Translations under genes and position numbers: made by a program | The notes under the pieces: model-generated | Database searches by the model: none | The model's input: the letters and a program-made list of their open reading frames with translations, nothing else | What the model was told of the DNA's origin: nothing | Part shown: positions 3,968 through 63,811 of the stretch, one piece after another | Position numbering within the stretch: the first letter of the stretch is position 1 | Layout of the letters: each line of letters opens with the position of its first letter | Source of the DNA: Syntrophales bacterium | GTDB lineage: Bacteria > Desulfobacterota > Syntrophia > Syntrophales > UBA2210 | Direction: 5' to 3' | Length of the DNA: 64,000 bases | NCBI GenBank assembly: GCA_963662405.2 | Contig: CAXXKT010000003.1 | Coordinates: 320,001-384,000, forward strand

Positions 3968-4012
3968 TGGTAGTCCCACGGGGAATCGAACCCCGGTTTC
4001 CGGCGTGAGAGG
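3968..4012 (-). mobile_element. att site: 3' half of tRNA-Glu(CTC); left boundary of an integrated island
   Basis: Reverse complement CCTCTCACGCCGGAAACCGGGGTTCGATTCCCCGTGGGACTACCA contains the anticodon loop, T-arm GTTCGATT and CCA; D-arm and 5' acceptor strand are absent. Confidence 0.88.
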
Positions 4013-8503: not shown

Positions 8504-8575
8504 ATTAATGTTGGAACACTACTGATAATGAATATCATCTTAATATTGGCATCCGGATTGCTGGCCTGTAGCGCC
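8504..8575 (+). repeat. 72-bp direct repeat, copy 1 (copy 2 at 37315-37386)
   Basis: 65/72 identity by manual alignment. Confidence 0.92.
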
Positions 8576-9164: not shown

Positions 9165-9410
9165 GAACTATCCGATTAATATCGCTATGTACTCCCAATC
9201 AGGATAATATTTCCGTATCTCGTTAAAGTTGGTTTCTAGATACTGCCATACTCCCTTAAGGATTTTTCGCCTAAACCTCGTTATCCACACTGTACAGTAA
9301 TGGGCTCTGACTTCCTCAGTCTCATAGAGCTAATATATCAAAGTTCACCCAGGGAATACAGGATATGCCTCTCACCCCCGCTCTTACGAACGAGAAACTC
9401 TCTGAATTAG
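9165..9410 (-). mobile_element. Degenerate IS200 remnant (tnpA 5' part and element end), related to 36590-37137
   Basis: Shared blocks aaggatttttcgcctaaa, atccacact, ctgacttcctcagt, atatcaaagt, tacaggata, ctctcacccccgc. Confidence 0.85.
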
Positions 9411-9435
9411 ACTGTCAACCTCCCTTCAACGCACC

Positions 9436-9585
9436 CCTCAATATGCTGAGGGTTCCACCAAGTGCTGAGGCCAAACGAACCGTTTCATACCCTTCTGCAG
9501 CGCTATCCTGTTAATCTAATCCACTGTTAATAAAGGATGAATCAAAATTTATAATTTTCCTTCGGCTATTGGCAGGCTATTTGCT
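9436..9585 (+). promoter_or_regulatory. Sigma-54 promoter with palindromic upstream activator sites, copy 1
   Basis: TGGCAGGCTATTTGCT at 9570-9585 (GG-N10-GC); CCTCA-N6-TGAGG at 9436-9451. Confidence 0.8.
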
Positions 9586-9681
9586 CTTATTCTATATACT
9601 CTTGGTTATCTCATTCAGGAGCAGCCCGAATGTTCAAGAGAATAGATAAAGTAAACGAACATCCGAACAGAGAAAGAGGGA

Positions 9682-14000: not shown

Positions 14001-14243
14001 AGGAACGGCGAAAAACCCTTTTCTTCAAAAGGCATATGTGAGTAGATGCGGTATATGGTCGAGAGGATATTGTGTGCTATTATATGTAGGAATGTATGAA
14101 AAGAAACTTTTCGCCTATGTTGTGTATGTCAGGAAAAAGGAGACGAGGGGCAACTGCAATTAACGTCGCACTTCAAACGGAGTAATGATTATAATGCATA
14201 CGTCCCAAGCAAATAATTCATAACGAGTCAAAGGGGAACAGAA

Positions 14244-25068: not shown

Positions 25069-27123
25069 ATGATATGGAGACAAGAAAAAAGCAGAGGAAT
25101 TAGGGAGATGAGCGATATTATGCCTTCCCCCAAGACCATACAAACAAAGCAGCAGCTTCTCCTTGAGGTGGAAAAGCTTCAGGCGAGGCTTGATGCCTCA
25201 GAGAGGCGCTTACAGGAGACCAACGACATATTACAAGCTCAAATCGCCGAGCGCAAGCGAGCAGAGGAAGCCTTTGAGGAAGTTCAGGGATACACTAAAG
25301 ACATCGTGGAGACAATACGTGAACCACTTATCGTGCTTGACTCCGACCTGAAAGTTATCTCGGCAAATCGCTCCTTCTATGAAACCTTCCAAGTATTGCC
25401 TGAAGAGACCGAGGAAAGATTTATCTTTGAGGTGGGCAATCACCAGTGGGATATTCCTGCATTACGAAAGCTGTTAGAAGAAATTGTTCCCCAAAATACC
25501 CACTTCAATGATTTCGAGGTCGACCACACGTTTCCACACATTGGGCGGAAAAGGATGAATCTCAACGCTCGTCGGGTCTTTCGTGAAGGTAAAGGCACGG
25601 ATAAGATACTCCTTGCTTTTAAGGACATTACCGACCAAAAGCGGGCAGAAGAGGCACTCAAATTCTCTGAAAAGCGATACCGCCGCCTTTTTGAAACAGC
25701 CCAGGATGGAATATTAATCCTCGATGCCGAAACAGGGCAAATATCGGATGTGAACCCCTTCCTGACAGAAATGTTGGGTTATTCGCATGAGGACTTTTTA
25801 GGAAAGAAACTCTGGGAAATTGGGCTCTTTAAAGATATTGACGCATCGAAGGCCACCTTTTCGGAATTGCAGGATAACGGGTATGTCCGCTACAAAGATT
25901 TACCACTTGAGACAAAAGACGGACGGGTCATAGCCGTAGAGTTTGTCAGTAACGTCTATCTGGTCAATCATCATAAAGTGATTCAGTGCAACATCCGTGA
26001 TATCACCGAACGGAAACTTATAAGAGCGGCTTTACAAAAATCCCACGACGAACTGGAACAACGCGTTGAGAAACGGACACTCGAACTTCGGACGGCTCTT
26101 TCCGAGATTCAAACAATGAAAGACCGGCTAGAGGCCGAGAATATTTACTTCCGTAAAGAGGTCAAGAGAAGGGGCCAATCCAGCAATATAATAGGGCAAA
26201 GTGACGGGATCAAATATGCTCTCTATCGGGCGGAACAAGTTGCTCCTTCGAACACGACGGTCCTCATCCTTGGTGAGACCGGCACAGGGAAGGAACTGAT
26301 CGCTTTTGCCATCCATGAGATGAGCCCCCGCAAGGAGCGGCCGCTTATCACGGTCAACTGTGCTGCCCTGCCGGGCAATTTAATTGAGAGCGAACTATTC
26401 GGCCGGGAGAAGGGGGCATTTACCGGGGCCGATACCCGGCAGATCGGCCGATTTGAAATTGCCCATGGTTCCACCATTTGCCTGGACGAGATCGGGGAGT
26501 TGCCGCTGGAGTTGCAGGCAAAGCTGCTCCGGGTGATTCAGTATAACGAGTTTGAGCGCCTGGGCTCGTCCCATACCATCAAAGTCGATGTGCGGATTAT
26601 AGCTACGACCAATCGAACCCTTGAGGAAGAGGTCCGCAAAGGCCGGTTTCGGCAGGACCTTTACTATCGGCTCAACGTCTTCCCCATCACTGTTCCACCA
26701 TTGCGGCAGCGGAAAGAAGACATCCCATTATTGGTACAGATCTTCGTAGAGCGATACTCCAAGAAATTGGGCAAACAGATCACGTCGATCCAGAAGGAGA
26801 CGATGAAGGAACTACAGGATTACCCGTGGCCCGGGAACATCCGGGAGTTGGAAAGCATCGTTGAACGGGCAGCGATATTGTGCCCCGGGCCTGTCTTGCA
26901 TCTGGTAGATAAACTGAAGATTTCATCCTCTGCACTTTCATCAACCTTTAGGACATTGGAAGAGTCGGAGCGAAACCAGATTCTTAAAATTCTTTCTGAG
27001 ACAGGGTGGCGCATCGAGGGAAAGGACGGGGCCGCAGCGATCCTTGGCCTCAACCCAAGCACCTTACGAGCGAGAATGCATAAGCTTGGGATAGTCCGGC
27101 CGGAGATAAAAGAGCCCCAATAG
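25069..27123 (+). CDS. PAS-domain sigma-54-dependent transcriptional activator
   Basis: Two PAS domains, [23 protein letters not shown]-terminal Fis-type HTH. Confidence 0.95.
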
Positions 27124-27148
27124 AGCGTCCATCTCCCCTCAAAATATT

Positions 27149-27298
27149 CCTCAAGATATTGAGGGTTCCACCAAACACTGAGGCCAAACGAATGGTTTCA
27201 TACCTTTCTGCTGCTGCCTCCTATCAATCTAATTTACTGTTAATAAAGGATGAATCAAAACTTATAAATTCCCTTCGGCTACTGGCAAGCTATTTGCT
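27149..27298 (+). promoter_or_regulatory. Sigma-54 promoter with activator sites, copy 2
   Basis: TGGCAAGCTATTTGCT 27283-27298; CCTCA-AGATAT-TGAGG 27149-27164. Confidence 0.82.
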
Positions 27299-27309
27299 GT
27301 TATCTTTTT

Positions 27310-27615
27310 ATGATCCTCGTAATTACACAAATGAAGGTTGTTTCTGAAAAACGCATGGAATTGTTACAGACGATTGCTTCACTGTCTGATTTCATAGGGC
27401 TGGAGAAAGGATGCAATCGCTGTAACTTATGCCAGAGCATAGAGGATGAAAATAGACTCTTTCTTCTTGAAGAATGGGATACCAGGAAGAGCCTTATGGT
27501 CCATATGAGGTCGGAGCGATATAAGGTGTTACGGGGAGCAATGAACCTTCTTCAAGAGACCTACGAAATGATGTTCCACACCGGTTTCCATTCGGAGGGA
27601 ATGGAGGATATTTAA
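27310..27615 (+). CDS. Antibiotic biosynthesis monooxygenase (ABM)-family protein, copy 1
   Basis: EKGC...EDENRLFLLEEWDT...HMRS. Confidence 0.8.
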   Translation: MILVITQMKVVSEKRMELLQTIASLSDFIGLEKGCNRCNLCQSIEDENRLFLLEEWDTRKSLMVHMRSERYKVLRGAMNLLQETYEMMFHTGFHSEGMEDI

Positions 27616-27686
27616 TGAGGAGATTTAATGTGAAACAGCTTTTACTGAAATAGATGGAGGGATTTTTCCTCAGAAAGGAGGAGCAT

Positions 27687-27836
27687 ATGTTGTGGACGGT
27701 TGCTGCTGTACTGGTAATTTTGTGGCTGCTGGGTCTGGTGAGCAGCTATACGTTGGGTGGGTTCATTCATGTCCTGCTGGCCGTTGCCATTGTTGTTGTG
27801 TTGATCAGAGTCATTCAGGGGAGAAGAGTGTTGTAG
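27687..27836 (+). CDS. lmo0937-like small membrane protein
   Basis: MLWTVAAVLVILWLLGLVSSYTLGGFIHVLL; RBS aggagg. Confidence 0.85.
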   Translation: MLWTVAAVLVILWLLGLVSSYTLGGFIHVLLAVAIVVVLIRVIQGRRVL

Positions 27837-27994
27837 CGCGTAAGTTCCTTGCCGGAGAAGGTGAGGTTTTTGAAGAGGAAGGAAGCAAGCACATCTCCGG
27901 AAAGATTTTGCCGAATCGTTTGATATCTTAGGGTAGAAAAGGTTTCGTAATGAGTCATTTACAATCAAAGTCACAGAAGAGAGGAATACTTCCC

Positions 27995-28309
27995 ATGAAG
28001 AAGAGAAATATTGTTATCCATTTTTTAGTGATTCTTATGCTGATCGCCACCTTTGCAGCCTGTGCATCGACACGCACACAGTCAAGTGCAGGTGAATACG
28101 TTGACGATTCGATCATAACGACAAAGGTAAAATCCCTGCTTGCGGAAGATGATTTTCTCAAGTCATTTCAGATCAGTGTCGAGACTTACAAGGGCGCCGT
28201 TCAACTGAGCGGCTTTGTTGATTCTCAAAAGGCTGTCGATAAAGCGGGTGAAATAGTAAGGAGCGTTACAGGGGTCACATCCGTAAAGAATGATCTGATC
28301 GTGAAATAG
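27995..28309 (+). CDS. BON-domain (OsmY-like) lipoprotein
   Basis: Lipobox FAAC; DDSIITTKVKS, VETYKGAVQLSGFV, VTGVTSVKNDL. Confidence 0.9.
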   Translation: MKKRNIVIHFLVILMLIATFAACASTRTQSSAGEYVDDSIITTKVKSLLAEDDFLKSFQISVETYKGAVQLSGFVDSQKAVDKAGEIVRSVTGVTSVKNDLIVK

Positions 28310-28686
28310 ATGAAGAAGAAATACCTTGAAATCAAGCACGAATGACCGGCTGGAAGGCACGTTTCACCAAATGAAGGGCAAAACTAAATAATTGTACGGC
28401 TCAACAAAATCAACCCCATCGTGAGATGAAGGTAATGAGCTGTGTTTCTCCATACTGACGAGGAAAATGAGGGTTAAAAGATGGAAAAGATGCTTAGAAA
28501 AAGTTCTTATTTAGTCGGCGTTCAAGCTATTTATCGCAATGGTGAGCTGATCTATAGCGGACAACAAACCAAGGTCGATATGAAATCCAATCAGGTGCAG
28601 GGGGGAACAGATAAGAAAGACGAGGACAATAATCAAAATAAATCATGAAAAAACAACAGTAACAACAATAAAGGGATAACATATAA

Positions 28687-28986
28687 ATGAAAAAATACAC
28701 AGAATAGTAGTAACAATGACAGCGATGGCATCTAATGATGCTCAGTATGCCTGCGTACGCGTCCAAAGTGGATGACCTCATCGAATCATCAGCCAGAAAT
28801 TCGTATGTGTTCAAGACCTGCCTCAAGGGTGATGATATCAAAGTCGAATCCAAAGACAGTGCTGTTACCTTGACGGGGATCGTCTCCGAGGAATCTCATA
28901 AGTCATTGGCCTAGGAGACCGTAGCAAGTCTCTCAGGTGTCAAGAGTGTGGACAACAAACTGGAAGTTAAAGGGGGACAGCTGTAA
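28687..28986 (+). pseudogene. Second BON-domain gene, disrupted
   Basis: SYVFKTCLKGDDIKVESKDSAVTLTG...SLA*ETVASLSGVKSVDNKLEV; TAG at 28912-14 and a 5' frameshift. Confidence 0.75.
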
Positions 28987-29082
28987 GGGGCCGCAGTGAT
29001 CCTGGGTCTACACCCAAGCACCTTAAGATCAAGAATGTATAAGCTCGGGATAGTCCGTCCGGAGACAGAAAAACCGGATTAG
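28987..29082 (+). pseudogene. Duplicated HTH tail of the sigma-54 activator
   Basis: [26 protein letters not shown] matches 27028-27123. Confidence 0.85.
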
Positions 29083-29107
29083 GCTGTCCGCCTCCCTTTA
29101 AAGTATC

Positions 29108-29256
29108 CCTCAATATATCGAGGTTCCACGAAATATTGAGGCTGTATGAATCATCTTAACCCCTTCCGTCGTTCCCTCCTGATGATCTAATGGACTGTTA
29201 TTATAGGATGAATCAAAGCCCCTGGTCTTTCTTCAGTGATTGGCAAGCTATTTGCT
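29108..29256 (+). promoter_or_regulatory. Sigma-54 promoter with activator sites, copy 3
   Basis: TGGCAAGCTATTTGCT 29241-29256; CCTCA-ATATAT-CGAGG 29108-29123. Confidence 0.8.
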
Positions 29257-29267
29257 GTTATCTTTTT

Positions 29268-29573
29268 ATGATCCTCGTAATTACACAAATGAAGGTTGTT
29301 TCTGAAAAACGCATGGAATTGTTACAGACGATTGCTTCACTGTCTGGTCCCATAGGACTGGAGAAAGGATGCAAGCGCTGCAACTTATGCCAGAGCATAG
29401 AGGATGAAAATAGACTCTTTCTTCTTGAAGAATGGGATACCAGGAAGAGCCTTATGGTCCATATGAGGTCGGAGCGATATAAGGTGTTACGGGGAGCAAT
29501 GAACCTTCTTCAAGAACCCTGTGAAAAATCGTTTTACACTGTTTACCATCCGAAGGAAATAAATGATATTTAA
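29268..29573 (+). CDS. ABM-family protein, copy 2
   Basis: Nearly identical to 27310-27615 until the last ~18 codons. Confidence 0.8.
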   Translation: MILVITQMKVVSEKRMELLQTIASLSGPIGLEKGCKRCNLCQSIEDENRLFLLEEWDTRKSLMVHMRSERYKVLRGAMNLLQEPCEKSFYTVYHPKEINDI

Positions 29574-36589: not shown

Positions 36590-37137
36590 AATGAATCTCC
36601 ACGCCCTTACGGACGTGGTATCTTATAATTCAAGCTCCGCTTGTCCTGTATCTTCTTCCCCCTGCATCTCAACATATTTCCGAATAATCTTCTCGTTAAT
36701 TCCAACTGTTGAGACGAAAAATCCTTTTCCCCATATTCCCCGCTTATCCCAATATATCTTACTCAAAAAACCAAATTTCGCCTTTAACGCTCCGCTCGTG
36801 TTTGCCTTGATGATATCCACCACTTCACTCACTGAATATCTCGGCGGTATCACCATGTGTATGTGAACATGATCAACATCAATCCCTATCGCTGTACTCC
36901 CACTCAGGATAATACTTCCGCACCTCGCGAAATTTGGTCTCCAAATACTGGCGAACTCCCTTGATAAGGATTTTTCGCCTAAATCTCGTGATCCACACTA
37001 TATGGTACTGCGTCCGGTAAACTGTATGTGCTGACTTCCTCAGTTTCATACAGCCTCTATATCAAAGTGCCCCCAGAAGATACAGGATACGGCTCTCACC
37101 CCCGCCCTCACGGACGGGGAACTCCCGCTAAATTAGA
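36590..37137 (-). mobile_element. tnpA: IS200-family element with frameshifted tnpA (36623-37049)
   Basis: MKLRKSAHTVYRTQYHIVWITRFRR..., frameshift near 36890, DHVH, IPPRYSVS, WGKGFF, YVEMQ; terminal hairpins. Confidence 0.88.
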
Positions 37138-37143
37138 ATTTTG

Positions 37144-37321
37144 TAACGACGCGTAAAAGGGAACAGAAATGCTGCCATGTTAAAAGAAACCGCCGTTGGA
37201 AGATTTAAAGGATAAGGTCCGTGCACTATTTGCTCCTGTGGGCATAGAAAACAAGAAGGGCGCCTTGCCCCCCAAGACGCATTTCAGCATCTGGTATTTC
37301 CTGATTACCTTTCCATTAATT
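37144..37321 (+). pseudogene. Truncated duplicate of the ftsH 5' end
   Basis: Aligns to 14221-14396 and stops at the 72-bp repeat. Confidence 0.9.
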
Positions 37322-37386
37322 TTGGGACACTACTGATAATGAATGTCATCTTAATATTAGCATCTGGGTTGCCGGCCTGTAGCGCC
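37315..37386 (+). repeat. 72-bp direct repeat, copy 2
   Basis: Matches 8504-8575. Confidence 0.92.
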
Positions 37387-37594
37387 TATGCCTCCAAACA
37401 AATAATCAACGAAAACTTTAAATACTCATAATATCAATAGATTGTAAGAATTGCGGACAGGCTGAAAATAATGAAAAGAGCTTGTTTTGTGTCCATGGGT
37501 GTATCCACGCATGTCTTTCCCATGAAACAAAAACCTATATCACTCCGCTAATCAAACAGAAGATCAAAACAATAACTCATCGGGCAGGTTTCTC

Positions 37595-39275: not shown

Positions 39276-40202
39276 ATGAGCAAAACATCTTCTCCCAGAA
39301 CCAATATGCTTCCTCAACATGACATGGCCCTGCTTTCTACCATCGGTGAGTATCGGGTGGTGACCGTACGGCAATTGGCTGCCATCAGCGAACGAAGCTG
39401 CCAGGTTGTCCGACGCAGAATACGATCACTGGAAGATCAGGGGCTGATCATCAAAAAGCCTTTTGGCTATGGCAAGCATCAGGGGCGCCCCGAAGAAATC
39501 ATATATCTCTCAAGTAAGGGTATACATGTCTTGTCTGAACAGGGGCTTTTTTCGATGTCTATCAACTGTCGGCTGGATATCAGCAATCATCATATCGATC
39601 ATGAGCTGCTCGCCAACTGGTTTTACATCCACTGGAAATATATGGAGAGGGTTATCCCGCATCTGACGTTTACCTATGTATCATCGCAGACACCCTCGGC
39701 TGGACTCAGCAGTCTCCTGAGGATCTCAATTCCCGGAAATGAACCGGGCAGAAATCTGCTCATCATCCCGGATGGCATCCTTATAGTGAAAGACAAAGAA
39801 AAGGGCAAAGCGCTCCTGTTTTTTCTGGAAGTTGACATGGATAGTGAAACCATGTCCGGAAGAAAACAAAACACCAATACCATCCAGCATAAGATCCTGT
39901 GTTACCGGGAACTCTTCAGGCAGCGGCGCTACAAGAGTTTTGAAAAGACCTTTGACGCCACGTTGAACGGATTCCGAGTACTCTTTCTCGCCGCTACGGA
40001 CACCCGGGTGGCTTCCCTGTGTCGCTTTGTTCGAACGTTCCCCAATACGGACTTCATCTGGTTGGCCGATCAGTCGCAGATGTTCGAATGCGGCCTCTCA
40101 TCTAATATCTGGGTTCGAGGAGGAAAATACGAGGAACATCGAGAATCCATTCTCGGATCGAACCTTTCCATAGAAGCACCCCTCATGACGCATATCCGAT
40201 GA
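39276..40202 (+). CDS. Replication-relaxation family protein
   Basis: N-terminal wHTH, HHIDHELL, IIPDG, FFLEVDMDSE, GFRVLF. Confidence 0.75.
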   Translation: MSKTSSPRTNMLPQHDMALLSTIGEYRVVTVRQLAAISERSCQVVRRRIRSLEDQGLIIKKPFGYGKHQGRPEEIIYLSSKGIHVLSEQGLFSMSINCRLDISNHHIDHELLANWFYIHWKYMERVIPHLTFTYVSSQTPSAGLSSLLRISIPGNEPGRNLLIIPDGILIVKDKEKGKALLFFLEVDMDSETMSGRKQNTNTIQHKILCYRELFRQRRYKSFEKTFDATLNGFRVLFLAATDTRVASLCRFVRTFPNTDFIWLADQSQMFECGLSSNIWVRGGKYEEHRESILGSNLSIEAPLMTHIR

Positions 40203-46360: not shown

Positions 46361-47320
46361 CTATGGTATGGAGAGGTCGCCCTTCGGTAATGCTGCAATA
46401 ATCGCCTCGGCTTCCTCTTCAATTTGCTTGCGGTTCATTCCCAGCTCATTTTCGAGTAACGCCCACTTGTCGCATGTAGGGCAATTTTTCCGTTTGTGAA
46501 CATTGGCGTATATGCATTTAAACGGGTCAGGAAATATCCATTCCTTCCGATTCCCCCACAATAAAAAATTATAAGGGATATCTTCAAGGAGGCTCTCCGT
46601 ATTTCTGAGAAGAGTGAGCAGTGCGATTTTTGCTTGGATGAGCGCTATAAAATGGATATCCAATCCAAGCCCAGGTTCGGCTTGATAGTGTTCCGTACTT
46701 TCTATGTTGCTATACGCAACGGACCCTATGGGTTTTGAGTCGAAACATTCAAGCTGCTGTATCGAGCCGATGACACAATCGTAGCAGGGCGTTTCTCCAG
46801 GAATTACCCGCATCACATCCCCGCCAAACGCGCGCTCATAAGCGCCGGCATATATAGCCGGGATTGAAATTCCTTTTTCATGCCACAATCGTATACACAC
46901 GTCGTTGATTATATATTTTGATTCTTCGGAATCCGTGCAGGGAAGAAGCAAATCAGAATTCTCGATCATCCATTCAAGGGTTGCTGTTTCTTCCGTTACG
47001 TCAACATTGAAGCATTCTGCCTCTGCCGCCGGATTGATATTGAGGATTGCATCCTTGACCGCCTCGGTTTTATACCTCCCGATATCACGCATTCCGCACA
47101 CATGACGCGAAACATTGTGGATTTCGAGTTTGTCAAAATCAGCAAGATAAAATCGAGAAACACCACACCTTGCCAGTGCAATTGAGGCAAAGGAACCTCC
47201 CGAACCAAGCCCGACAACAGTGATACGCTTGTCTTTTAAAATGTCTGTCTCGAAGATGCCGTTGATTCGCGAAAAAAGCTCATTGTGCGATAATGCCGTT
47301 TTTGTTTCTTTTTTTTGCAT
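46361..47320 (-). CDS. ThiF/E1-like adenylating enzyme
   Basis: VVGLGSGGS, DFDKLEIHNVSRH, GRYKTEAVK, CTD, Zn-binding PCYDC and CPTC. Confidence 0.92.
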   Translation of the reverse strand: MQKKETKTALSHNELFSRINGIFETDILKDKRITVVGLGSGGSFASIALARCGVSRFYLADFDKLEIHNVSRHVCGMRDIGRYKTEAVKDAILNINPAAEAECFNVDVTEETATLEWMIENSDLLLPCTDSEESKYIINDVCIRLWHEKGISIPAIYAGAYERAFGGDVMRVIPGETPCYDCVIGSIQQLECFDSKPIGSVAYSNIESTEHYQAEPGLGLDIHFIALIQAKIALLTLLRNTESLLEDIPYNFLLWGNRKEWIFPDPFKCIYANVHKRKNCPTCDKWALLENELGMNRKQIEEEAEAIIAALPKGDLSIP

Positions 47321-47352
47321 TGCTGTCTCCCGTGGAGCAATCTTCGGAACTC

Positions 47353-47961
47353 TCAATGATGAGCCCAGCGATGAGCGTAGTAACAAACGATGCCACAAAA
47401 ACGATATTTACTGTCTCCACAATCATGGCAATAAGTATATCGGGAACCTAATTTACCGCCGCATTGGGCGCACACATTATGAAGAAGATACCGGTCCGCA
47501 CATCTTGAGCTGCAAAATCTCAGTTTTTCCCTCATTGCACGGTCAACTTTATCGCTGTGCCAATACTGACTTGCCAGATGAGAACCGCATTGTGCACAGA
47601 TATTCTTATCCCAAAAGGAATCAAAACAGGAATCGCTGCAGAAGCGTAATTTTTTGCCCGTTTTCGAATTGAGTTTTTTACTATATGTGTAGCTCCTTCC
47701 TAATTTTCCACCGCATTCGGCGCAATATTCTTCCTCATAGTGTTTGTCGCGAAGATGCCGTTGAAAACATGCATCGGAACAATAACGTTTATCGTCATTG
47801 CAGCTTGTACAAACGAAATGAGTAAGATCGAGTTCTTTTCCGCACATATGGCAGCGTTTCTTAACCGGACTGGGAGAGGTAGCCTTAGGTGTCGAGACCG
47901 CTAAGTCCTTTCCCTCGACAATCTCACCATATTCATTAAACCGAGCTTTATTATAATCCAT
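47353..47961 (-). CDS. Tandem Zn-finger (TRASH/FCS-like) repeat protein
   Basis: Four repeats of CxxCG...(R)FCSxxC. Confidence 0.8.
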   Translation of the reverse strand: MDYNKARFNEYGEIVEGKDLAVSTPKATSPSPVKKRCHMCGKELDLTHFVCTSCNDDKRYCSDACFQRHLRDKHYEEEYCAECGGKLGRSYTYSKKLNSKTGKKLRFCSDSCFDSFWDKNICAQCGSHLASQYWHSDKVDRAMREKLRFCSSRCADRYLLHNVCAQCGGKLGSRYTYCHDCGDSKYRFCGIVCYYAHRWAHH

Positions 47962-48050
47962 TCAAGTTATGCCCTGTGTAACTGTTTTCAAGATGATTGG
48001 GTAATCTTATTCATGAATTGTTTTACAGTTGCGATTGAATCAGGCAAAAA

Positions 48051-48635
48051 TTACGCTTCTTTCCCAGGCCAATACTTACAGGGAATCTCGCTGCATCCGC
48101 AATGTTTTTCGTGATATTCATAACACCACAACCACGTCGAAGCCATCGCTATCAATGTGGCCCCTGTGGTGTTTGTCTGCCATGTGTTATCGTTCGGATG
48201 CATTAGGCAGAGTTCCCCTCCAGGAAATTGATGTTTCGGAGCGTTGATTTTAGGGTCTAGAACCCAGACATTTGGGTGGCTATACGGAAAATTTGAAGGG
48301 TAGATCAGTGCTACTTGATATGAACGGGTACCTTCCGGACGTACGTAACCTTTCCATGCCAGACCTTGTTCTGTTTCGAGGAGGGTAAAATAGGGGAACC
48401 TCACTTGCATCGCTCGTTTTTCCAACAGGAGTCGGCCCGGGTTGTCATGATACCATGCAAACCATCGCTGTGGTTTCAAACGAGTGGCTGATTCACCAGA
48501 GGAGGGATCAATTCTCCCTCCATCTTTCGACGGAATGGTATCATCTCCAGAAACAATCTCACCTTCTTCAAGGATGTCTATAGGTTTGCCTTCATCCAAT
48601 TGTCGCTTTATTTCATCCTCCAGACGTCTCGACAT
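48051..48635 (-). CDS. Prokaryotic E2 (UBC-fold) protein with acidic N-terminal extension
   Basis: LAWKG...YPSNFPYSHPNV...PKHQFPGGELCL (candidate catalytic Cys)...W...WPG. Confidence 0.8.
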   Translation of the reverse strand: MSRRLEDEIKRQLDEGKPIDILEEGEIVSGDDTIPSKDGGRIDPSSGESATRLKPQRWFAWYHDNPGRLLLEKRAMQVRFPYFTLLETEQGLAWKGYVRPEGTRSYQVALIYPSNFPYSHPNVWVLDPKINAPKHQFPGGELCLMHPNDNTWQTNTTGATLIAMASTWLWCYEYHEKHCGCSEIPCKYWPGKEA

Positions 48636-48756
48636 ATACACCTCCTTTTTCGAACCTCAGGGATTGAGAATAGTTCACATCGGAACTTATCCAAGAGTGA
48701 GACCATGCTTCCTTGTTATTGCCACGAAACCATCATACATGACCAGAAAAGAATCT

Positions 48757-49950
48757 TCATTCTCTTCTCAGGTCAGCAAACCCTAATATGTTCACAATAC
48801 CCCCAATACAGGGGGGTATTCTTCCAGATTCCCAATCAGACTTCAGTTTTTCCACCATCCCTTGCACATAGGCATGCCAATCCATCTCCCTATTTTCAAC
48901 ACGGCCGTCAAAATCAATAATATTTTCAATCGTTCCGTTGTGCAGCAAATACAGTTCCGGGAAGGTGTTTGGATAATCATGGGAACAGATCACCTCCAGA
49001 AAAACTCGTCTATAATGCGGAGAGGCAAATCTCCAGGCAAGTCTTCCGGTCGGCAACATTCTCAGGCCGACTCTACTACACAATGATTTGAGTGTTCTTT
49101 TTTCTGCCATCAATAGATTTTTCCCTTGCGCGGTTTCATACCATCGATCGTTCTTGTCTTTATGTTGTTCCACCGTTTCAGTATCATGTAACAATTCATG
49201 TGACACGTCTTGCAGCTGATTTTCTTTCGATACACAGCATGATGAAGAACCCGCTGATTCACGCCTATCGCTATGAGTGCCACCACCGTCTAACGATGAT
49301 GGGGCACCAGCGTCAGTGAACTTGTTACACAATTCTCCAGCATTGGTCTTGTCAAATGTCTTGCAGTTGACATATGCCGTGTAAAATTGACTGACTTTCT
49401 CTTGTGTGCCTAAGTCGCAGGAAGCAATCTGGAAGTGAAAAGGATGGAACTGGAAAGTGTTATCCATATAGTAGGGATAGCAAGCAATGTTTTGTTCAGT
49501 AGGCCAGAAGAAGTATTCAACAAGGGCACGATGGAAAGGCAACTGCAGGTAATCGGTAGTGTGAGACAATACCCACACGGGGAATACCATTAAATCTCCG
49601 GTTTTATAGTCGGGATCTTTCAATATCTCCTCCACGCCTTTTCTATCTTCTTCGCTCGGTTCTGTAAGTGTCGGAGGATGTTTATGCCACTCACCGATGT
49701 AATCGACTCCGGTTTTTTCGGCAAAGTGATCAAGTGCCGCTTGAGAAAACTCCAGGTCTCTTTCAAACATGGCGGGCCTGTGGACCGCTTTCGGTCCGGG
49801 GGGAGTGGCGTGCGTAATCAACCGACCATTAGGCAACTTTGTTCCCAATAACAGGCCCCCTGTTTCCAATCTATGATCAACTTTCAGAAGTTCCTCCTCA
49901 ATGAACGAGAGGACGGAAGGGAAAATTATAATATTTGGTGGAGGTCTCAT
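48757..49950 (-). CDS. JAB/MPN metalloprotease fused to a degenerate E2-like C-terminal domain
   Basis: ETGGLLLG, GEWHKHP, PSEED; C-terminal WYET..LLMAEK...LAW...DYPNTFPELY. Confidence 0.85.
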   Translation of the reverse strand: MRPPPNIIIFPSVLSFIEEELLKVDHRLETGGLLLGTKLPNGRLITHATPPGPKAVHRPAMFERDLEFSQAALDHFAEKTGVDYIGEWHKHPPTLTEPSEEDRKGVEEILKDPDYKTGDLMVFPVWVLSHTTDYLQLPFHRALVEYFFWPTEQNIACYPYYMDNTFQFHPFHFQIASCDLGTQEKVSQFYTAYVNCKTFDKTNAGELCNKFTDAGAPSSLDGGGTHSDRRESAGSSSCCVSKENQLQDVSHELLHDTETVEQHKDKNDRWYETAQGKNLLMAEKRTLKSLCSRVGLRMLPTGRLAWRFASPHYRRVFLEVICSHDYPNTFPELYLLHNGTIENIIDFDGRVENREMDWHAYVQGMVEKLKSDWESGRIPPCIGGIVNILGFADLRRE

Positions 49951-54745: not shown

Positions 54746-55159
54746 TCACAGATAGTTGAAGAGGTCTCTATCTTTCCGCTCTTGAAGACCGTCTTTTCTT
54801 TCCCTGAAATCCTGCATAAGTGATGAAAGACGATTCAGTGAGCGAGAGAATCTGTTTGAAAAGACCCATCCCTCCCGGTAACCATAAAGCTTATTGAATC
54901 GGGAGACGTGGTCGATGATGCCCATCCTCCTCATTTTGCTCCGGACAGTTTCCAGCATACGGGGTGAAAATCCGTACCTATCGCATAAGGGGCTCAGTTC
55001 CGCCAAGAACTCACTGGGGGCGTATTTAAGCTCGATAAATATTGCCAGGAAGATCTTCTGGTGATTTTTATTATTGGGGAACAACAGTGCTGCAATCTCA
55101 TCCAAGCCCTGAGTGCGGGCAATTTTATTGTAGGTAACCTCGATCTTTGTGTTTGACAT
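54746..55159 (-). CDS. Hypothetical winged-helix-like protein
   Basis: FSPRMLETVRSKMRRMGIIDHVS helix-wing pattern. Confidence 0.65.
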   Translation of the reverse strand: MSNTKIEVTYNKIARTQGLDEIAALLFPNNKNHQKIFLAIFIELKYAPSEFLAELSPLCDRYGFSPRMLETVRSKMRRMGIIDHVSRFNKLYGYREGWVFSNRFSRSLNRLSSLMQDFRERKDGLQERKDRDLFNYL

Positions 55160-55406: not shown

Positions 55407-55799
55407 TTACAATTCAGGACCTGTGGGATTGGTGGCTTTGTCGTTGCTTTCTCGACGACAAAAGGACAAATCGCCTATTTTTTGCTGTTTTTTACGCATC
55501 TCAACCCGTTCCCTGACAATTGCCAGTGCCTGCTGTCGGAGTTGGGTCCCGAACTGACTTTCGATCAGGTAGATCGCCTCATAGGCCGAAACGTATATGT
55601 CATTGAACAGCCGCTGGAACCGCCAGCGGACTCCCTGCCTGGTCATTTTGAAGGAGGTCTCTATCTTATCGCCATAGTTCTGTCTCAATACGAGGCGCTT
55701 ATATCCGGCATCTTTCATATCGACAGCCAGGTCTTTTGCATCGAGCAACAACTTTAATCGTTCCAGGTAATCCTTATCCTTCTGCGTAAGCTTCATCAT
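55407..55799 (-). CDS. Hypothetical protein, possible HTH
   Basis: MTRQGVRWRFQR; overlaps the upstream gene. Confidence 0.65.
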   Translation of the reverse strand: MMKLTQKDKDYLERLKLLLDAKDLAVDMKDAGYKRLVLRQNYGDKIETSFKMTRQGVRWRFQRLFNDIYVSAYEAIYLIESQFGTQLRQQALAIVRERVEMRKKQQKIGDLSFCRRESNDKATNPTGPEL

Positions 55800-56637
55800 T
55801 ACATCTCCGTATGAGTAAATCATCGCCGGATTGTTGCAGGACAACCTCGCGATCGTTATCCATGAAGATCAGAGCCGTGAACCGCCGTGCCCTGTCGCAT
55901 CGGCAGTCCTCGATAAGGGGCGATATGGAGGAGAAAAGAAGGGTGTGGTGACCCAGTACCGCCAGAATATGAGACCGGTAGGCATTGAGATCGAAGTCAC
56001 TCTTCAGATCGAAGAAATCCGTATATGCCGCCATAGGATTTTCGAGGATGAACGCATCCAGGTCTTTGGAGAAATCGGAGAGGATATCCGACTCCGGATT
56101 TTCCATGAGAACCAGTTCCCCGGATCGGGACTCGGCCAGCAGTCTTCTGATGGCTTCTCGTTTCTCTCTGGACCGGTTCCGCGACTCCTGCATCATCTGC
56201 CGGAAATACTCGGCATCAAACAAACGTTCATCGAATATGAATCGCGAGGGGACCGTCTTATGACATGTTGAACAGGAGTAATGAAACGTTTTTCGAACGA
56301 GCGGCGCCTGGCAGCAGGGGCTTGTCTGAAAGGCGACCGTCGGATCGAACACGTGTCCTCCCTGACAGGTGCATTCACTCTGTCCGCTCATGGTGATTCC
56401 CCTGCCGCAGGTTGGACAGGCGTAGTTGGAAAGCATTACCTGAAAATAAAACTCCTTTGCACGTTCTTTATAGGACTCTATATGTTGAAGAATGCCATTG
56501 ATTCTGCGGACAAGAGGGTTTTTGAAGAAGGCATCCTGAGTTGCGGTTCCTTCCGGCACTATGCGTTCGAAAGGTACTTCGCATGTGAGTAACGGGATGC
56601 TTCTTTTTCCAACCGGTATGTCTTCTTCGTTTTCCAT
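55774..56637 (-). CDS. Zn-ribbon protein with ScpA-like C-terminal winged helix
   Basis: CPTC, CTC..H, CC, CSTC; C-terminal ARRFTALIFMDNDREVVLQQSGDDLLI. Confidence 0.65.
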   Translation of the reverse strand: MENEEDIPVGKRSIPLLTCEVPFERIVPEGTATQDAFFKNPLVRRINGILQHIESYKERAKEFYFQVMLSNYACPTCGRGITMSGQSECTCQGGHVFDPTVAFQTSPCCQAPLVRKTFHYSCSTCHKTVPSRFIFDERLFDAEYFRQMMQESRNRSREKREAIRRLLAESRSGELVLMENPESDILSDFSKDLDAFILENPMAAYTDFFDLKSDFDLNAYRSHILAVLGHHTLLFSSISPLIEDCRCDRARRFTALIFMDNDREVVLQQSGDDLLIRRCNDEAYAEG

Positions 56638-56650
56638 GGTGAGCTGTGCA

Positions 56651-57892
56651 TCAGGTAGCTGGATTCAGGTCAAACTCCATCAGAATGACCTGTGTGAGCC
56701 TGTCCGAGATCTCCTTCGGCAGGTTGATCGTGATTTCCTTGGTTCGCCCATATCGGCCATGGGAAAAGACCCGCGCCTGGATGAAGCCGTACATGTCCAA
56801 CTCCGAAACGAGATCGCTGAAGGCTCTTTGGGTCAAGACCCGCAGCTTGATCGTGGAGCAAAACTGACGGTATCCTTCATAGGCGTCACCGGTGTAGACC
56901 GGTTTCGTCGTCCTTGCCGTAAGGAGAATAACGGCAAAAAGGGCGGCCTGGAGCTGCTTGGGGCTGGATTTTATCATCGCCACGTACTTGTCCTTCTCGA
57001 TGTCATCCAGTGCCCGATCGACCAGATCCATGGTAATTTTTGTCCCTTCCTTTTCCGCCATGAGTGCCGACTTTGAAAGAAGCTCCACCGCCTTTCGTGC
57101 ATCGCCATGGGTCCTGCTCGACACGGCAGCGATTTTTTCCAGAACGCCCGCTTCGATCATTTCTTGATTGAGGGCCTTCTGTATGCGCAGCGCAAGGATT
57201 TGTTGTAGATCGTAGGCATTGTAGGGTTTGAAGAATATCTCGTTGATCTTCAGAAAAGACTTGATCCGCGGATCGATGTTCTCCTGCCAGTTAAGTCTGT
57301 TTGAGGTAAATACCAGAATGAGCTTCAACGGCACGGTTTGAGGCAGTCTCTTGGTCAGGAACTTCAGAAAACTGTCGATATCCCTTCTCACATGATCGAC
57401 TTCATCGACAAAGATGATGAAATATCCACGATAGTTTTTCATCTTCTCTTCGATCTTGCCCATGAGTTCGTCCAATGAGATCCCCTTCTTGTAGCGCTTT
57501 GACGCATCCAGGTAGCAGGCGAGATCGTTTAACACCCGAAAGCAGGGTTTTGGTGTCGATAGATCCAGATGTATATACATCATTTCGATCATCTTCTTGT
57601 GGCAGATCGCCTTCAGCATGTTCAGGTAATAGAGCATCGTCACCGTTTTACCGGTGCCCGTTTTTCCATAGAGTGACAGATGGACAGGATGGTCCCCTCT
57701 GAACATGGGTGCGAAATGGGAACTCAGGTCTTCGATTTCGGTGTCTCGAACATCCAGGGCAAAGATCTCCTCCAGCACCTGGAATTGTTCGCTCCGGTCG
57801 AGCTGCTCATCGTCAAGATATCGTCTATCCAGGATGATGGTATTCTTGAGCAGGGACTGAATCTGCTTTTCAATCTTCAAATCGGCTCGCAT
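56651..57892 (-). CDS. cdc6: Orc1/Cdc6-family AAA+ replication initiator
   Basis: YGKTGTGKT, DEVD, DPRIKS, FKPYNAYDLQQIL..R, HGDARKAVELL, wHTH SELDMYGFI...GRYGRTKEI. Confidence 0.9.
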   Translation of the reverse strand: MRADLKIEKQIQSLLKNTIILDRRYLDDEQLDRSEQFQVLEEIFALDVRDTEIEDLSSHFAPMFRGDHPVHLSLYGKTGTGKTVTMLYYLNMLKAICHKKMIEMMYIHLDLSTPKPCFRVLNDLACYLDASKRYKKGISLDELMGKIEEKMKNYRGYFIIFVDEVDHVRRDIDSFLKFLTKRLPQTVPLKLILVFTSNRLNWQENIDPRIKSFLKINEIFFKPYNAYDLQQILALRIQKALNQEMIEAGVLEKIAAVSSRTHGDARKAVELLSKSALMAEKEGTKITMDLVDRALDDIEKDKYVAMIKSSPKQLQAALFAVILLTARTTKPVYTGDAYEGYRQFCSTIKLRVLTQRAFSDLVSELDMYGFIQARVFSHGRYGRTKEITINLPKEISDRLTQVILMEFDLNPAT

Positions 57893-57896
57893 GGTG

Positions 57897-58130
57897 GTTC
57901 CACTGGAAATTTACCGGGACATGCGACAGCTTCTGAATAACCACATATTTATATTTTTCGTTTTTTCAGTGTGAGTAATTTTCCAGTGGAGATTGGGGAG
58001 GAAAGATGTGTTGTCCTTTTTTGAAATTCATCGCAATATTTTCTATATAGAAAGTAAATATACATAAAGATATAGATATATACCGATACATACATACCGT
58101 GTTCCATCGGAAATTTACTCTCACTGGGGA
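57897..58130. other. Candidate replication origin: ORB-like boxes around an AT-rich tract
   Basis: GTTCCACTGGAAATTTAC 57897-57914; inverted 25-mers at 57967-57991 and 58102-58126. Confidence 0.7.
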
Positions 58131-60154: not shown

Positions 60155-60443
60155 AAAGAATAATGGTGTGAAAAATTCTTGATATAAGCTCAGAGAGCTA
60201 GAAGGCTGACATCTTTGATCTTGATGCCTTTTCTGCTTTTGACTGGCCGTAGCCGGAGGGTTTATAGCCTGATCATCAAAGCCCTGTTTCTTATCAAAAG
60301 AAGTGGGGTCAATAGCAGATCTCCAGCTCGTTCAATCCGTAGATTTTGGTCGATTTCCTTCACCACCCCCCATCATAAAACCGAAAACTTTATATACCAG
60401 TATCACTTCCCAGTAACAAAAAGGGACAGATGAGCTGGTTTGC

Positions 60444-60980
60444 ATGATCATAAACTCGATAACCCCGGACTACGATAACGGAAATTTCCCCGTCGAAGTC
60501 AGCTCTGCGTCCCCCTCTATAACGTATCTTTATCCCCAGAGGTATGGCTATCATCGAACCTGCCCCGCATATCCCATTACCTTCCCCTTTGAGCGAAAAC
60601 CGATGTTCTACGCGACTGGCTTGGGTCTCGAGGGACTCCTCTACCAGAAACAGGAGGTCATCGATTCCAAGATCCGCATGGTCCTTTCGGAGATCGACCA
60701 GCGCCGGCTCATGAAGGACTATCATCTCTATCGAATCGATTGCGATCAATGCTCCTGCCGGAACTTGGTGTACTTTATCGGCATGGACTACAAGGACCGC
60801 CGCAGGGTGGATATCGAAAAGAAGATCATCGATCTGGAACAGGAAAAACGACGTGAACGCGCCGCCTACTTTCGGGATGTCCTCTTCCTCAGAAAGGAGC
60901 TGAGGGAATCGTTCATCGAGAAGCTGGAAGAGGAACAGAAGGCGGAGATATTTATGAACCCCAAGGAGGAATTCCCATGA
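60444..60980 (+). CDS. Hypothetical coiled-coil protein
   Basis: 178-aa ORF, translationally coupled to the next gene. Confidence 0.7.
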   Translation: MIINSITPDYDNGNFPVEVSSASPSITYLYPQRYGYHRTCPAYPITFPFERKPMFYATGLGLEGLLYQKQEVIDSKIRMVLSEIDQRRLMKDYHLYRIDCDQCSCRNLVYFIGMDYKDRRRVDIEKKIIDLEQEKRRERAAYFRDVLFLRKELRESFIEKLEEEQKAEIFMNPKEEFP

Positions 60981-61129
60981 ACGAGATAACCAAGGAAGAC
61001 ATTCGAAAGCTGAGAAACGACCCGTTGAGCTTTGCCGTGCTTATGGAAAACCAGCATTTAGAGCACGTCATCGCCACCTTCGTGTCGGTTCTGAACAAGA
61101 GAAGACGAACGCGAGGTGATCAGAATTGA
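60977..61129 (+). CDS. 50-aa hypothetical protein
   Basis: RBS aggagg, ATGA overlap; MNEITKEDIRKLRNDP... Confidence 0.55.
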   Translation: MNEITKEDIRKLRNDPLSFAVLMENQHLEHVIATFVSVLNKRRRTRGDQN

Positions 61130-61871
61130 ACGACGCATCCTGAGCCCCACCGCAATCAACACCTACCTGGCATGTCCCCGCAAGTTTTACCTGCGCTACA
61201 TCAAAAAGCTGCCCGGCAGGCCCTCCATTCATCTTATACGAGGTTCTCTCGTCCATAAAACCCTCCATGACTTTCATGTCAACCTCTCCAGAATTATTCC
61301 ATACAACGATCCCGAAGCGATCGGCACCGCCCTGATCGGCATATTCCAGCGCCACTGGCAGGCGGAAAAGACGGCCCTCGAATCCCTGGGACTCTCTCAG
61401 GAGCGCCTGGAATACTACCGGCGCGACAGTGCGGACATGCTGACCAATTACGCCCGATGGTTCGCCGGCCAGAGGGCCCCTCCCGTGGTGGATGCCACGG
61501 AACTCAAGATATTTTCCGGAAAGCTTCGCCTCATGGGAGTCATCGATGCCGTGAAGATCCAGGGAGGCGAAACCTTTCTCACCGATTACAAGACATCGAA
61601 GAGCACTTCGATCACCGAGGATATCACGCGGCAGGCCATCATCTATGCACTGCTCTACCAGGACCGGTACGGAGACATCCCCGCGGCGGTCTATATCCAT
61701 TTCCTCAGGGATCCCAAAGATCCGGCGGTGCTCTACATGGACGATGTCCAGCTCGAGTACGGAAAAATATTAATAGACGCCATCCGCAACAAGACCGGGA
61801 CCACCGATGAAAAGGACTACCCCTGCACCTGCGGTGGCACCTGCGATAGAGACTTCATCACCGGTCCATGA
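61116..61871 (+). CDS. PD-(D/E)XK nuclease (RecB/Cas4-like)
   Basis: SPTAINTYLACPRKFY, GSLVH, GVID, DYKT, QAIIYA, C-terminal CTCGGTC. Confidence 0.88.
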   Translation: MIRIERRILSPTAINTYLACPRKFYLRYIKKLPGRPSIHLIRGSLVHKTLHDFHVNLSRIIPYNDPEAIGTALIGIFQRHWQAEKTALESLGLSQERLEYYRRDSADMLTNYARWFAGQRAPPVVDATELKIFSGKLRLMGVIDAVKIQGGETFLTDYKTSKSTSITEDITRQAIIYALLYQDRYGDIPAAVYIHFLRDPKDPAVLYMDDVQLEYGKILIDAIRNKTGTTDEKDYPCTCGGTCDRDFITGP

Positions 61872-63811
61872 CGATGATCGATCACGTGGAAGAAAAACTG
61901 AGGCTGCTGAAACCGATCCTCCCCCGGAAACAGTGGGAGTATCTCAGGATCAGCCATGCCCTGGAAAAGAACCAAAGGAAGCGCTTCGAGATAGAGAGCC
62001 TCATGGACTCCCTGATCGCCAAACATGTGCCGGGCCTCCGGATGGACGAGATCCTCCTGCCGCCGCCTGATGAGAATCTGCTTTCCGGCGACTGCCCCAT
62101 CGGCCGGACCGTCTATCCCAACAGTTCAGATTCCGTCTTCGGCATCCGGGACGGGGAGTGGATCAAACACTGCGGCATCTTCGGCAAGACCGGAAGCGGG
62201 AAGACCACACTCATGGTGCGGATACTGAAAGACCTCTGCGACAAGGACAGGCCCTTTCTGATCTTCGATTACAAACGCAACTACCGGGACCTCCTGAAGC
62301 ATCCCGATTTCGAGAAGAGCGACATCATGATCTTCACCGTGGGCCGGAAAGACGTGGTTCCCTTCCAGTTCAATCCCAAGGCGGGTCCCGAGGGCGTGGA
62401 AGGATATGTCTGGATCAAGCAGCTCGCCCAGATCATCGAGAAGGTGTATCTGCTGGGGCCCGGCGCCAACGACGTCTTCATGGAAAGCGCCGGTCTCGAT
62501 ACCTTCAAGGAGATGCAGGACAAGGTCCTGAAGCAGCGGAAAAAGGCGCGAGAGCTCCTCTGGTGGGCCAGCGTCAAGAGGACCCTGAACGCCATCAATT
62601 ATCCGGGACTGGGCGAAGTGGTCAACTGCCGGCAGGGATACCCCATCCCGGAGCTTTTGACAAAGAAGGTCATCTTGGAACTGGACGGCCTTTCCGATTC
62701 CGATCAGGCCTTCATCATCGGCAGCCTGCTCCTCTGGATCTACCACTACCGTATGCGGCAGCCCGAACGGGAGACGCTGAAGCACTTCATCATCATCGAA
62801 GAGGCCCACCACCTGTTTTTACAGACCAGGAAGGAAGAAGACATTGCAGATATCATCATGAGGGAGATCCGCGAGCTGGGCGAGGCGATCATCGTCATCG
62901 ACCAGCACCCCAGCAAGATGTCCGTGAGCGCCCTGGGGAACCTTTCCACCAAATTCGCCCTGACCCTGTCCCTCAACCAGGATGTGGCATCCCTGGCCAA
63001 TGCCATGCTCCTGGGAAAGGACGAACGGCGGTATCTCGCCATGCTGACCCTGGGGCAGTGCATCTGCCGTTCCGATCGTTTCCCCTGGCCGATCCTGCTT
63101 GCCATCGACAACTATCCCCTTCAAAAGGGCGCGGTCACCGATGAAGACCTGAAGACGCGCATGGCCGGGTATTTGGAGCATTTGACCCCGGAAAACCCTT
63201 CAATGAGCCCACAAAGGGATATTCACGGTATTCAGAGCCAGGAAACACTCTCCCCCCTGGGGCGGATCGTACTGGAAAACATCGAGCTCAAACCCTTCAT
63301 CGGCTTTGTCAGGCGCTTCAGAGACTTGGGGCTCACCATCCCCGATGGCTACAAGGTAATTGAAGAATTGACCGCCATGGGGCTGATCGTTCCCCTGACC
63401 ATCGACGGCCAGCGGCTCTACGAACTGAGCCGGAAGGGAAGAGACGCCCTGGGAAAAAAGGTTTTCCACAAGGGCCGGGGCGGTCTCGAACACCGCTACT
63501 ATATCGAAAAGATCAAGGACCATTACCTGAAGGAAGGAGGATTCACCTTCCTGGAAAAGGACGATATCGACATCGTCATCGAAAAGGTCGATCGCACCCT
63601 CGCCATCCAGATGGAGACCGGGAAATCCGACATCCAGGCGAACCTCTTGAAACTCGGCCGGTACCGAGCGGACTTCAAATACAGCCTCGCCACCAACCGG
63701 GAGACAGAGGTACTCATCCGGGACATCCTGAAACAGAACTTCCTGCCCGACCGGGAACGGATCCAGGTCGCCTTTGTCAAAGAGTTCCTCCGATCCCCTC
63801 CCAAACTGTAA
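61868..63811 (+). CDS. HerA/VirB4-like (DUF87-type) ATPase with C-terminal wHTH and nuclease-like tail
   Basis: KHCGIFGKTGSGKT, IEEAHH, REIRELGE, IDQHPS; tail GRGGLEH...DIDI...AIQMETG. Confidence 0.85.
   Translation: MTMIDHVEEKLRLLKPILPRKQWEYLRISHALEKNQRKRFEIESLMDSLIAKHVPGLRMDEILLPPPDENLLSGDCPIGRTVYPNSSDSVFGIRDGEWIKHCGIFGKTGSGKTTLMVRILKDLCDKDRPFLIFDYKRNYRDLLKHPDFEKSDIMIFTVGRKDVVPFQFNPKAGPEGVEGYVWIKQLAQIIEKVYLLGPGANDVFMESAGLDTFKEMQDKVLKQRKKARELLWWASVKRTLNAINYPGLGEVVNCRQGYPIPELLTKKVILELDGLSDSDQAFIIGSLLLWIYHYRMRQPERETLKHFIIIEEAHHLFLQTRKEEDIADIIMREIRELGEAIIVIDQHPSKMSVSALGNLSTKFALTLSLNQDVASLANAMLLGKDERRYLAMLTLGQCICRSDRFPWPILLAIDNYPLQKGAVTDEDLKTRMAGYLEHLTPENPSMSPQRDIHGIQSQETLSPLGRIVLENIELKPFIGFVRRFRDLGLTIPDGYKVIEELTAMGLIVPLTIDGQRLYELSRKGRDALGKKVFHKGRGGLEHRYYIEKIKDHYLKEGGFTFLEKDDIDIVIEKVDRTLAIQMETGKSDIQANLLKLGRYRADFKYSLATNRETEVLIRDILKQNFLPDRERIQVAFVKEFLRSPPKL

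Follow-up and report, generated by a model that had tools for sequence, protein, structure and literature searches.

Archaeal-type Orc1/Cdc6 gene with ORB-like boxes and BRE-TATA-like promoter motifs on a tRNA-integrated element of a Syntrophales bacterium

An integrated element in the genome of a Syntrophales bacterium carries an archaeal-type orc1/cdc6 gene together with three ORB-like boxes, an AT-rich tract and an archaeal-style promoter motif. This cassette is best explained as the replicator-initiator of an integrative-element family of archaeal descent which now resides in anaerobic bacteria. The window, i.e. the whole stretch of 64 kb that was analysed, comprises positions 320001-384000 of contig 3 (C3) of a 3.8-Mb host genome in 3 contigs, which is 100% complete by markers. 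Since this genome carries tmRNA, DnaA and DnaB, the host is a bacterium, and the named closest relatives of the element proteins are labelled Syntrophales. A first-pass annotation had already described the initiator and the boxes, and this part of the cassette content stands; a co-travelling gene trio and the promoter motif had been overlooked.

The element is bounded by a 45-bp att repeat of the tRNA-Glu 3' end, found at window positions 3968-4012 and, 113 kb away, at C3:437047-437091 within tRNA-Glu C3:437047-437121, where a tyrosine integrase gene adjoins the tRNA. A tRNA search returned no whole tRNA in the 64-kb window; as the terminal 3' 45 bp of tRNA-Glu recur at window 3968-4012, the earlier designation as a tRNA-integrated element holds and applies to about 113 kb. 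Thus, att repeats at a tRNA gene and a tyrosine integrase, by which integrative elements are recognised, are both present. The element makes up 3% of the genome DNA and its bacterial cargo includes sigma-54 activators, groEL, gas vesicle genes and parAB; a toxin-antitoxin pair is also encoded. An empty-site comparison in 5 same-genus genomes is confounded by the similarity between the flanks of the two att sites. In one metagenome sample the contigs at the right end had a greater depth within the element than beyond the att site (7.27 vs 4.8-4.9 and 5.53 vs 2-3.3). This step is only a hint of extra copies, because no contig continues through the tRNA repeat and the element itself had served to find the runs; it could also reflect other carriers in the sample. 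No single metagenomic contig of that sample bridged the att site, the breaks falling at the tRNA repeat.

Several further features of this genome were observed. AEP-TOTE primase genes lie near both ends of the element (window 4435-7360 and L006:10609-11631), the left one carrying a fused helicase whose remainder is encoded in a separate ORF. Ubiquitin-like modules of prokaryotic type (ThiF, JAB, E2) at window 46361-49950 and L006:3574-5961, with a kinase and a WD40 protein nearby, are likely defence cargo, and the gas vesicle genes of the cargo are clustered, together with a gene for a CDC48-like ATPase, from L004:15576 to L005:10068. A second island of about 32 kb (C2:323092-354974) is bounded by a 45-bp tRNA-Lys repeat and lacks cdc6. 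It has some genes and intergenic DNA in common with the cdc6 element; intergenic segments that recur both inside this element and in the C2 island are found at window 8504-9590, 14230-14396, 27028-29573 and 36660-37398, one set of them near the parA promoter region.

The orc1/cdc6 gene (56651-57892, minus strand) encodes 413 amino acids in which Pfam recognises the AAA+ domain, the Cdc6 lid and the winged-helix Cdc6_C domain, in agreement with the full-length Cdc6/Orc1 that had been described. Its score of 260.7 bits against the orc1/cdc6 model TIGR02928 is above the cut-off of 181.3 bits, but it falls short of what the archaeal equivalog models require (270 < 501). The best solved relatives are the archaeal Orc1 proteins 2qby_A (E 2e-55) and 2v1u_A. 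In a FastTree tree of 191 proteins, midpoint-rooted and with no donor group claimed, the relatives form one clade with two subgroups (support 0.996, counting two proteins of unknown context), which stands apart from the archaeal Orc1 encoded beside polD. The phylogeny suggested in the first-pass annotation thus yields a separate and well-supported clade, and a grouping with non-initiator AAA+ families, named there as a refutation, was not observed. Of 57 clade proteins, 55-57 retain Walker A and B, sensors I and II and the arginine finger, with S or T as the sensor I residue. The lid residues I232, L233, R236 and A240 are common to the clade and 23 archaeal proteins, whereas position 241 is L in 57/57 clade proteins and F in 23/23 archaeal ones; this stretch of the lid is the putative MCM-recruitment motif. 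The DNA contacts of archaeal Orc1-1 given as G120, R341 and R365 (Table 1 of PMC3089459), mapped through the alignment with PDB 2qby_A, correspond to G137 (56/57), R356 (55/57) and R380 (54/57, the rest being gaps) in the clade; the ISM glycine and the HTH and wing arginines expected of the initiator family are therefore present. Judged by its sequence, the gene is a true Orc1/Cdc6 with intact ATPase and DNA-contact residues.

Upstream of the gene the three boxes read as quoted earlier, at 57897, 57967 and 58102. The distal box A (58102-58126, minus strand) and the gene-proximal box B (57967-57991, plus strand) are inverted 25-mers with 5 mismatches, just as had been estimated, and a repeat search returns the pair as 24 nt with 83% complementarity. 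Box C (57897-57914, minus strand) is oriented as box A and lies just before the start codon, where it is likely an operator. Between A and B extends a spacer of 110 bp with 71% A+T (57992-58101), matching the AT-rich DNA of about 110 bp reported before; it is a candidate unwinding element, and windows of its size reach 70% A+T in 155 of 34,509 cases genome-wide. The boxes are built of a dyad and a tail, with the tail pointing outward from the spacer; in box B, accordingly, the dyad faces the AT tract and the tail points away. Outward tails also occur at L068, the one archaeal locus with both boxes caught. On the same strand and at the same distance, the tail is C-rich in the clade and G-rich in most archaeal boxes examined, the archaeal loci L086 and L090 likewise having C-rich tails. 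Compared with archaeal ORBs, inverted boxes around an AT-rich tract adjoining the initiator gene are found here, and a G-rich tail 3' of the dyad is not. The G-run that had been taken to follow one box proved to lie on the inner side of the middle box and occurs in 1 of 75 flanking boxes, namely this one. The exchange of G for C in the tail might be tolerable through minor-groove contact.

A pattern derived from the boxes matches 3 times in the window, compared with 0.02 times on average after shuffling, a circular comparison since the pattern was made from the boxes themselves. With a matrix of 97 boxes from other loci, which had first been found with a matrix including this locus, no site in the whole genome scores higher than the three boxes (28.8, 28.4 and 25.9 bits; next 18.9). 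Conservation was assessed in 58 other clade loci, of which 20 with partial genes or little upstream DNA were left out; near-duplicates L011 and L017 were excluded, and 3 of the 38 remaining loci had helped to train the matrix. The inverted pair is found in 27/38 of these loci, box C in 30/38 and all three boxes in 22/38; the pair is undetectable in 11/38, and the three-box layout recurs down to about 40% protein identity. Away from the upstream windows the box matrix gives 54 matches in 694,769 bases. Conservation of the boxes upstream of homologues, which had been put forward as a check, is thus borne out, and the recurrent placement of box C next to the start codon is consistent with the autoregulation suggested earlier. 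The spacers (n=29) measure 86-269 bp with a median of 116 bp, and each is more AT-rich than its own locus. They share a near-palindromic core, here at 58040-58053, with a T-rich flank to the left and an A-rich flank to the right; this pattern, picked by eye, occurs in 19/29 spacers against a shuffle mean of 0.12 and maximum of 2. Furthermore, half-boxes lie just 3' of the promoter motif at many clade loci.

Some loci show additional arrangements. A second inverted pair around an AT-rich tract is located just 3' of cdc6, about 1.35-1.55 kb after the cdc6 start, in L017 (complete) and in L002 (cut by the contig end). At L044:1453-4340 a dnaB gene, which passes the TIGR00665 cut-off, is arranged head-to-head with a divergent clade cdc6 which has a TATA-like motif and box C without the A-B pair; it is the only dnaB seen adjoining a clade cdc6. 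Among the archaeal polD-linked loci L064-L093 several cdc6 genes have a partial box just 3' of the TATA box, the same position as that of the half-boxes in the bacterial clade.

The element core contains a Replic_Relax-family gene (39276-40202, plus strand), with matches in 9 other fetched loci, and an operon (60444-63811, plus strand) encoding a 178-aa ORF, a PD-(D/E)XK (Cas4-like) nuclease and a HerA/CedD-like ATPase, as well as genes for a membrane protein and for a small protein that looks secreted. As candidate conjugation genes, Replic_Relax and HerA/CedD/TraD-like ATPases were found under cut-offs, and no mating-pair family was recognised in the element. Relatives of the ATPase (window 61868-63811) with 65-67% identity exist in the cultured Desulfosarcina variabilis Montpellier and Desulfocarbo indianensis; cultured sulfate reducers with the core ATPase are candidate hosts. 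No replicative helicase or primase is common to the element core in the fetched loci. The lack of MCM in the window, noted already in the first pass, extends to the whole genome: MCM_OB (PF17207) is absent from this genome (100% complete) and from five other carriers (completeness 94-98% or not given), with 4/4 archaeal controls positive. Four weak partial matches to PF00493 outside the element were rejected as MCM, as this model fires in all 14 control genomes.

Three companion genes follow cdc6 on the minus strand. Gene A (55774-56637) encodes 287 amino acids with zinc-ribbon motifs, a long helix and, C-terminally, a winged helix, gene B (55407-55844) about 130 amino acids from a conserved start, and gene C (54746-55159) a strongly conserved winged-helix protein of 137 amino acids. 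None of the three is named by Pfam, PHROGs or NCBIfam. In 19, 12 and 9 fetched loci, respectively, they are found near cdc6, either downstream of it or upstream in divergent orientation. Among 401 genomes of the phylum, gene A is present in the 3 with a clade Cdc6 and in no other, and gene C has no match in the two cdc6 carriers G402 and G403. In the predicted structures, A ends in a winged helix and C has one as well, and their fold matches are generic winged-helix proteins, all tied, with TFE-alpha, Rpa2, RPC34 and kleisins in the top rows. For gene A, Foldseek puts kleisin C-terminal domains first, weakly (E about 0.01), and a structure comparison (VIA) gives kleisin a Z of 8.0, tied with unrelated winged helices; a profile match to the host ScpA and a meaningful match in a PDB sequence search were both lacking. 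Cdc6 modelled jointly with its three companions scored 0.00, unlike the calibration, which is evidence neither way.

It is somewhat more likely than not that the cassette serves as the origin of the excised element, with autorepression by Orc1 and a helicase other than MCM, probably the host DnaB. In archaea, opposite-polarity ORBs around a DUE are the layout for positioning two helicases (PMC6742236), and the winged helix of MCM binds the Orc1 ATPase domain (PMC5333045). By analogy, one Orc1 monomer would bind each of boxes A and B with the winged helices toward the AT tract, and once the element is excised as a circle this binding would mark the tract for unwinding and helicase loading. At box C, just 3' of the promoter motif, Orc1 would repress its own gene. 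Host DnaB is proposed as the helicase because MCM is absent; its loading, possibly via the co-travelling winged-helix proteins, is the weakest step of the proposal. The companions may also read the archaeal-style promoters.

Several observations count against an origin, namely the absent helicase partner, the Replic_Relax gene as another route of replication or transfer, the 11/38 loci without the pair, the internal stops in two G067 genes, the C-rich tail, the missing gene C in G402 and G403 and the lack of a bacterial plasmid among the PLSDB matches listed. With a conserved Replic_Relax gene and a missing helicase, a non-replicative role is conceivable: Orc1 may have been retained to bind DNA as a regulator or organiser, be it an autorepressor, a partition factor or a transfer-origin factor, with the element copied via Replic_Relax nicking or passively. 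Box C at the gene start in 30/38 loci and the half-boxes 3' of the promoter motif at many loci fit such a role, as do the Replic_Relax matches in 9 other fetched loci and the failure to find a helicase partner in this genome, the five carriers or the element core. However, repression calls for no inverted pair at 86-269 bp and no AT-rich spacer containing a conserved core, the ATPase machinery is complete, I232, L233 and R236 of the lid are retained, and the second pair and spacer of L017 lie 3' of cdc6, away from the promoter. A purely regulatory Orc1 is thus regarded as possible but rather unlikely.

The promoter motif of cdc6 lies between boxes B and C (57945-57962, minus strand). A de novo search of the B-to-C region of 46 loci gave an 18-nt motif with a score of 677 against 315-350 in five shuffles, mostly 26-30 bp ahead of box C. 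In Pyrococcus furiosus the BRE extends from -36 to -32 and the TATA box from -30 to -23 (PMC6640164), and the motif columns of the clade fit these positions; CAT stands at columns 35-39, near the expected start, in 27/46 loci. A contiguous BRE and TATA with a start about 23 nt 3', as in an archaeal promoter, is therefore present in terms of sequence and spacing only. The element holds the genome's three best matches and 6 of the 29 above 13 bits, among them one 187 bp before the parA ORF start (37408-37425, plus strand, 19.9 bits) and the best of the genome before the operon of the 178-aa ORF, nuclease and ATPase (60380-60397, plus strand, 21.0 bits); a match was found for 2 of 2,433 host ORFs. 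The clade matrix also marks archaeal genes in polD loci (10/10 trmB at 12.4 bits or more). Sigma-70-type promoters, scanned with the consensus hexamers, occur 5' of cdc6 in 6/45 loci vs 14.0 in shuffles, and a second, -10-like box after the TATA-like motif scored 136.3 vs 121.6-142.3 in shuffles; both were rejected. A degenerate second box for an alternative sigma factor is possible, with a weak C at one column (46%). The use of Shine-Dalgarno variants (core 28/174, host 120/3,028, archaeal loci 3/165) is not discriminating.

These signals bear on the idea of a shuttle between the domains, in which the core would be transcribed and replicated in archaeal hosts supplying TBP, TFB and MCM and merely be parked in bacterial chromosomes. 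Besides the Pyrococcus-like layout and the second box that does not exceed shuffles, it is favoured by a matrix trained on 57 archaeal upstream regions, which picks the identical site in 43/44 clade loci with a median of 10.4 bits, compared with 0.0 in 2,289 host ORFs and 3.0 in 483 AT-rich host ORFs. ATG lies 39-40 nt from the motif start at 11/34 non-cdc6 sites vs 0.79 per column on average, 2 of the 11 having a sigma-70-like -10; this spacing is as expected for leaderless archaeal messages. In the archaeal set itself ATG is found at columns 38-41 in 2/20 cases at that threshold and at columns 39-40 in 8/57 at a lower one. TBP (PF00352) and TFIIB/TFB (PF00382) were detected in 0/5 carriers and 4/4 archaeal controls. 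In addition, the ATPase and the integrase have CedD (E 1e-21) and the archaeal XerA model as their best NCBIfam matches, both far under cut-off. Nevertheless, the taxon labels seen on clade members, with archaeal chromosomes outside the direct search, are all bacterial (Syntrophales, Thermodesulfobacteriota, Desulfobacterales, Deltaproteobacteria, Aminicenantes, Balneolales), and 105 ORFs in the neighbourhood included none recognisable as an archaeal housekeeping gene. PLSDB, although it contains archaeal plasmids, yielded no match to companions A and C, and in the top Atlas clusters of these two the few members that have a record are 100% bacterial. Parking in bacteria is thus considered unlikely. 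A broader proposal, less likely than not, is that elements of this family use the archaeal-type origin and promoters in bacteria by means of adaptors of their own, the winged-helix trio linking Orc1 to DnaB and the BRE-TATA-like motif to bacterial RNA polymerase, or that they are transferred between archaeal and bacterial cells in anaerobic communities.

The clade is patchily distributed, being found in 3/401 genomes of the phylum (one 31% fragment not counted) and 1/281 of the order. The match in G007 was rejected as a clade member (31% identity, 1.5-kb contig, boxes absent). Carriers differ in their numbers of cdc6 and gene C matches (G067 5 and 4, G306 2 and 2, G401 1 and 1, G402 and G403 1 and 0), and two of the G067 cdc6 genes contain internal stops. 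About 30 kb from a cdc6 of G306 an XPB helicase and DUF790 gene pair was observed (L110:2221-4915, G306:C291), the DNA between them encoding a cyclic-nucleotide synthase as well as a type I restriction system. Relatives were not found in IMG/VR or GenBank phages, and among the 40 of 447 PLSDB matches listed, all at most 30% identical, none was a bacterial plasmid. The rarity in the order, the metagenomic source reads and the contig breaks at the tRNA repeat might suggest an assembly chimera or the decaying relic of one transfer from an archaeon, but this is largely refuted and most improbable in view of at least 120 distinct relatives that are nearly full-length and 69-100% identical, independent bacterial contigs of up to 4.07 Mb carrying a clade cdc6, the single well-supported clade apart from polD-linked archaeal Orc1 and the non-coding signals conserved across it.

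With archaeal oriC1-type origins (Sulfolobus oriC1, Aeropyrum ORC1-ORB, Pyrococcus oriC) the cassette shares the protein family and the DNA-contact residues (PMC3089459), the dyad core and the boxes of opposite polarity around an AT-rich tract beside the gene (PMC6742236, PMC5333045). Unlike these origins, it resides on an accessory element and not beside polD, in a bacterial host with DnaA and DnaB in which MCM was not found, and its tail is C-rich instead of G-rich. Mobile orc/cdc6-origin cassettes are known from haloarchaea (PMC3528665, PMC4010727), where 42/102 origins lie near integrases or transposases (PMC3528665). Like haloarchaeal integrative elements and archaeal plasmids, initiator and origin appear here to be mobile as a unit with several copies per genome (five in G067). 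However, the hosts of those cassettes have MCM, TBP and TFB, and the archaeal plasmid proteins among the PLSDB matches listed are at most 30% identical to the initiator. The element also resembles replicating bacterial ICEs and islands in being tRNA-integrated and in having an integrase, partition genes, toxin-antitoxin and a replication or regulatory module of its own. Such modules include the MCM-like helicase of SCCmec and the SetCD activator of SXT/R391; we know of no replicating bacterial ICE or island with Orc1/Cdc6 and ORB-like boxes or with BRE-TATA-like promoters. The literature search returned no paper on a bacterial counterpart; by titles and the beginnings of abstracts, the papers were archaeal or unrelated, most subscription journals lying outside its coverage.

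Few features separate Bacteria and Archaea as sharply as the initiation of replication and of transcription. Selection in Bacteria for Orc1 together with ORB-like boxes and BRE-TATA-like signals would imply either a hybrid machinery, that is an Orc1 loading a non-MCM helicase and a TBP-free reader of TATA promoters, or a shuttling of DNA between the domains, with syntrophic and sediment communities as the setting. Both alternatives are testable with a cassette of about 3.5 kb.
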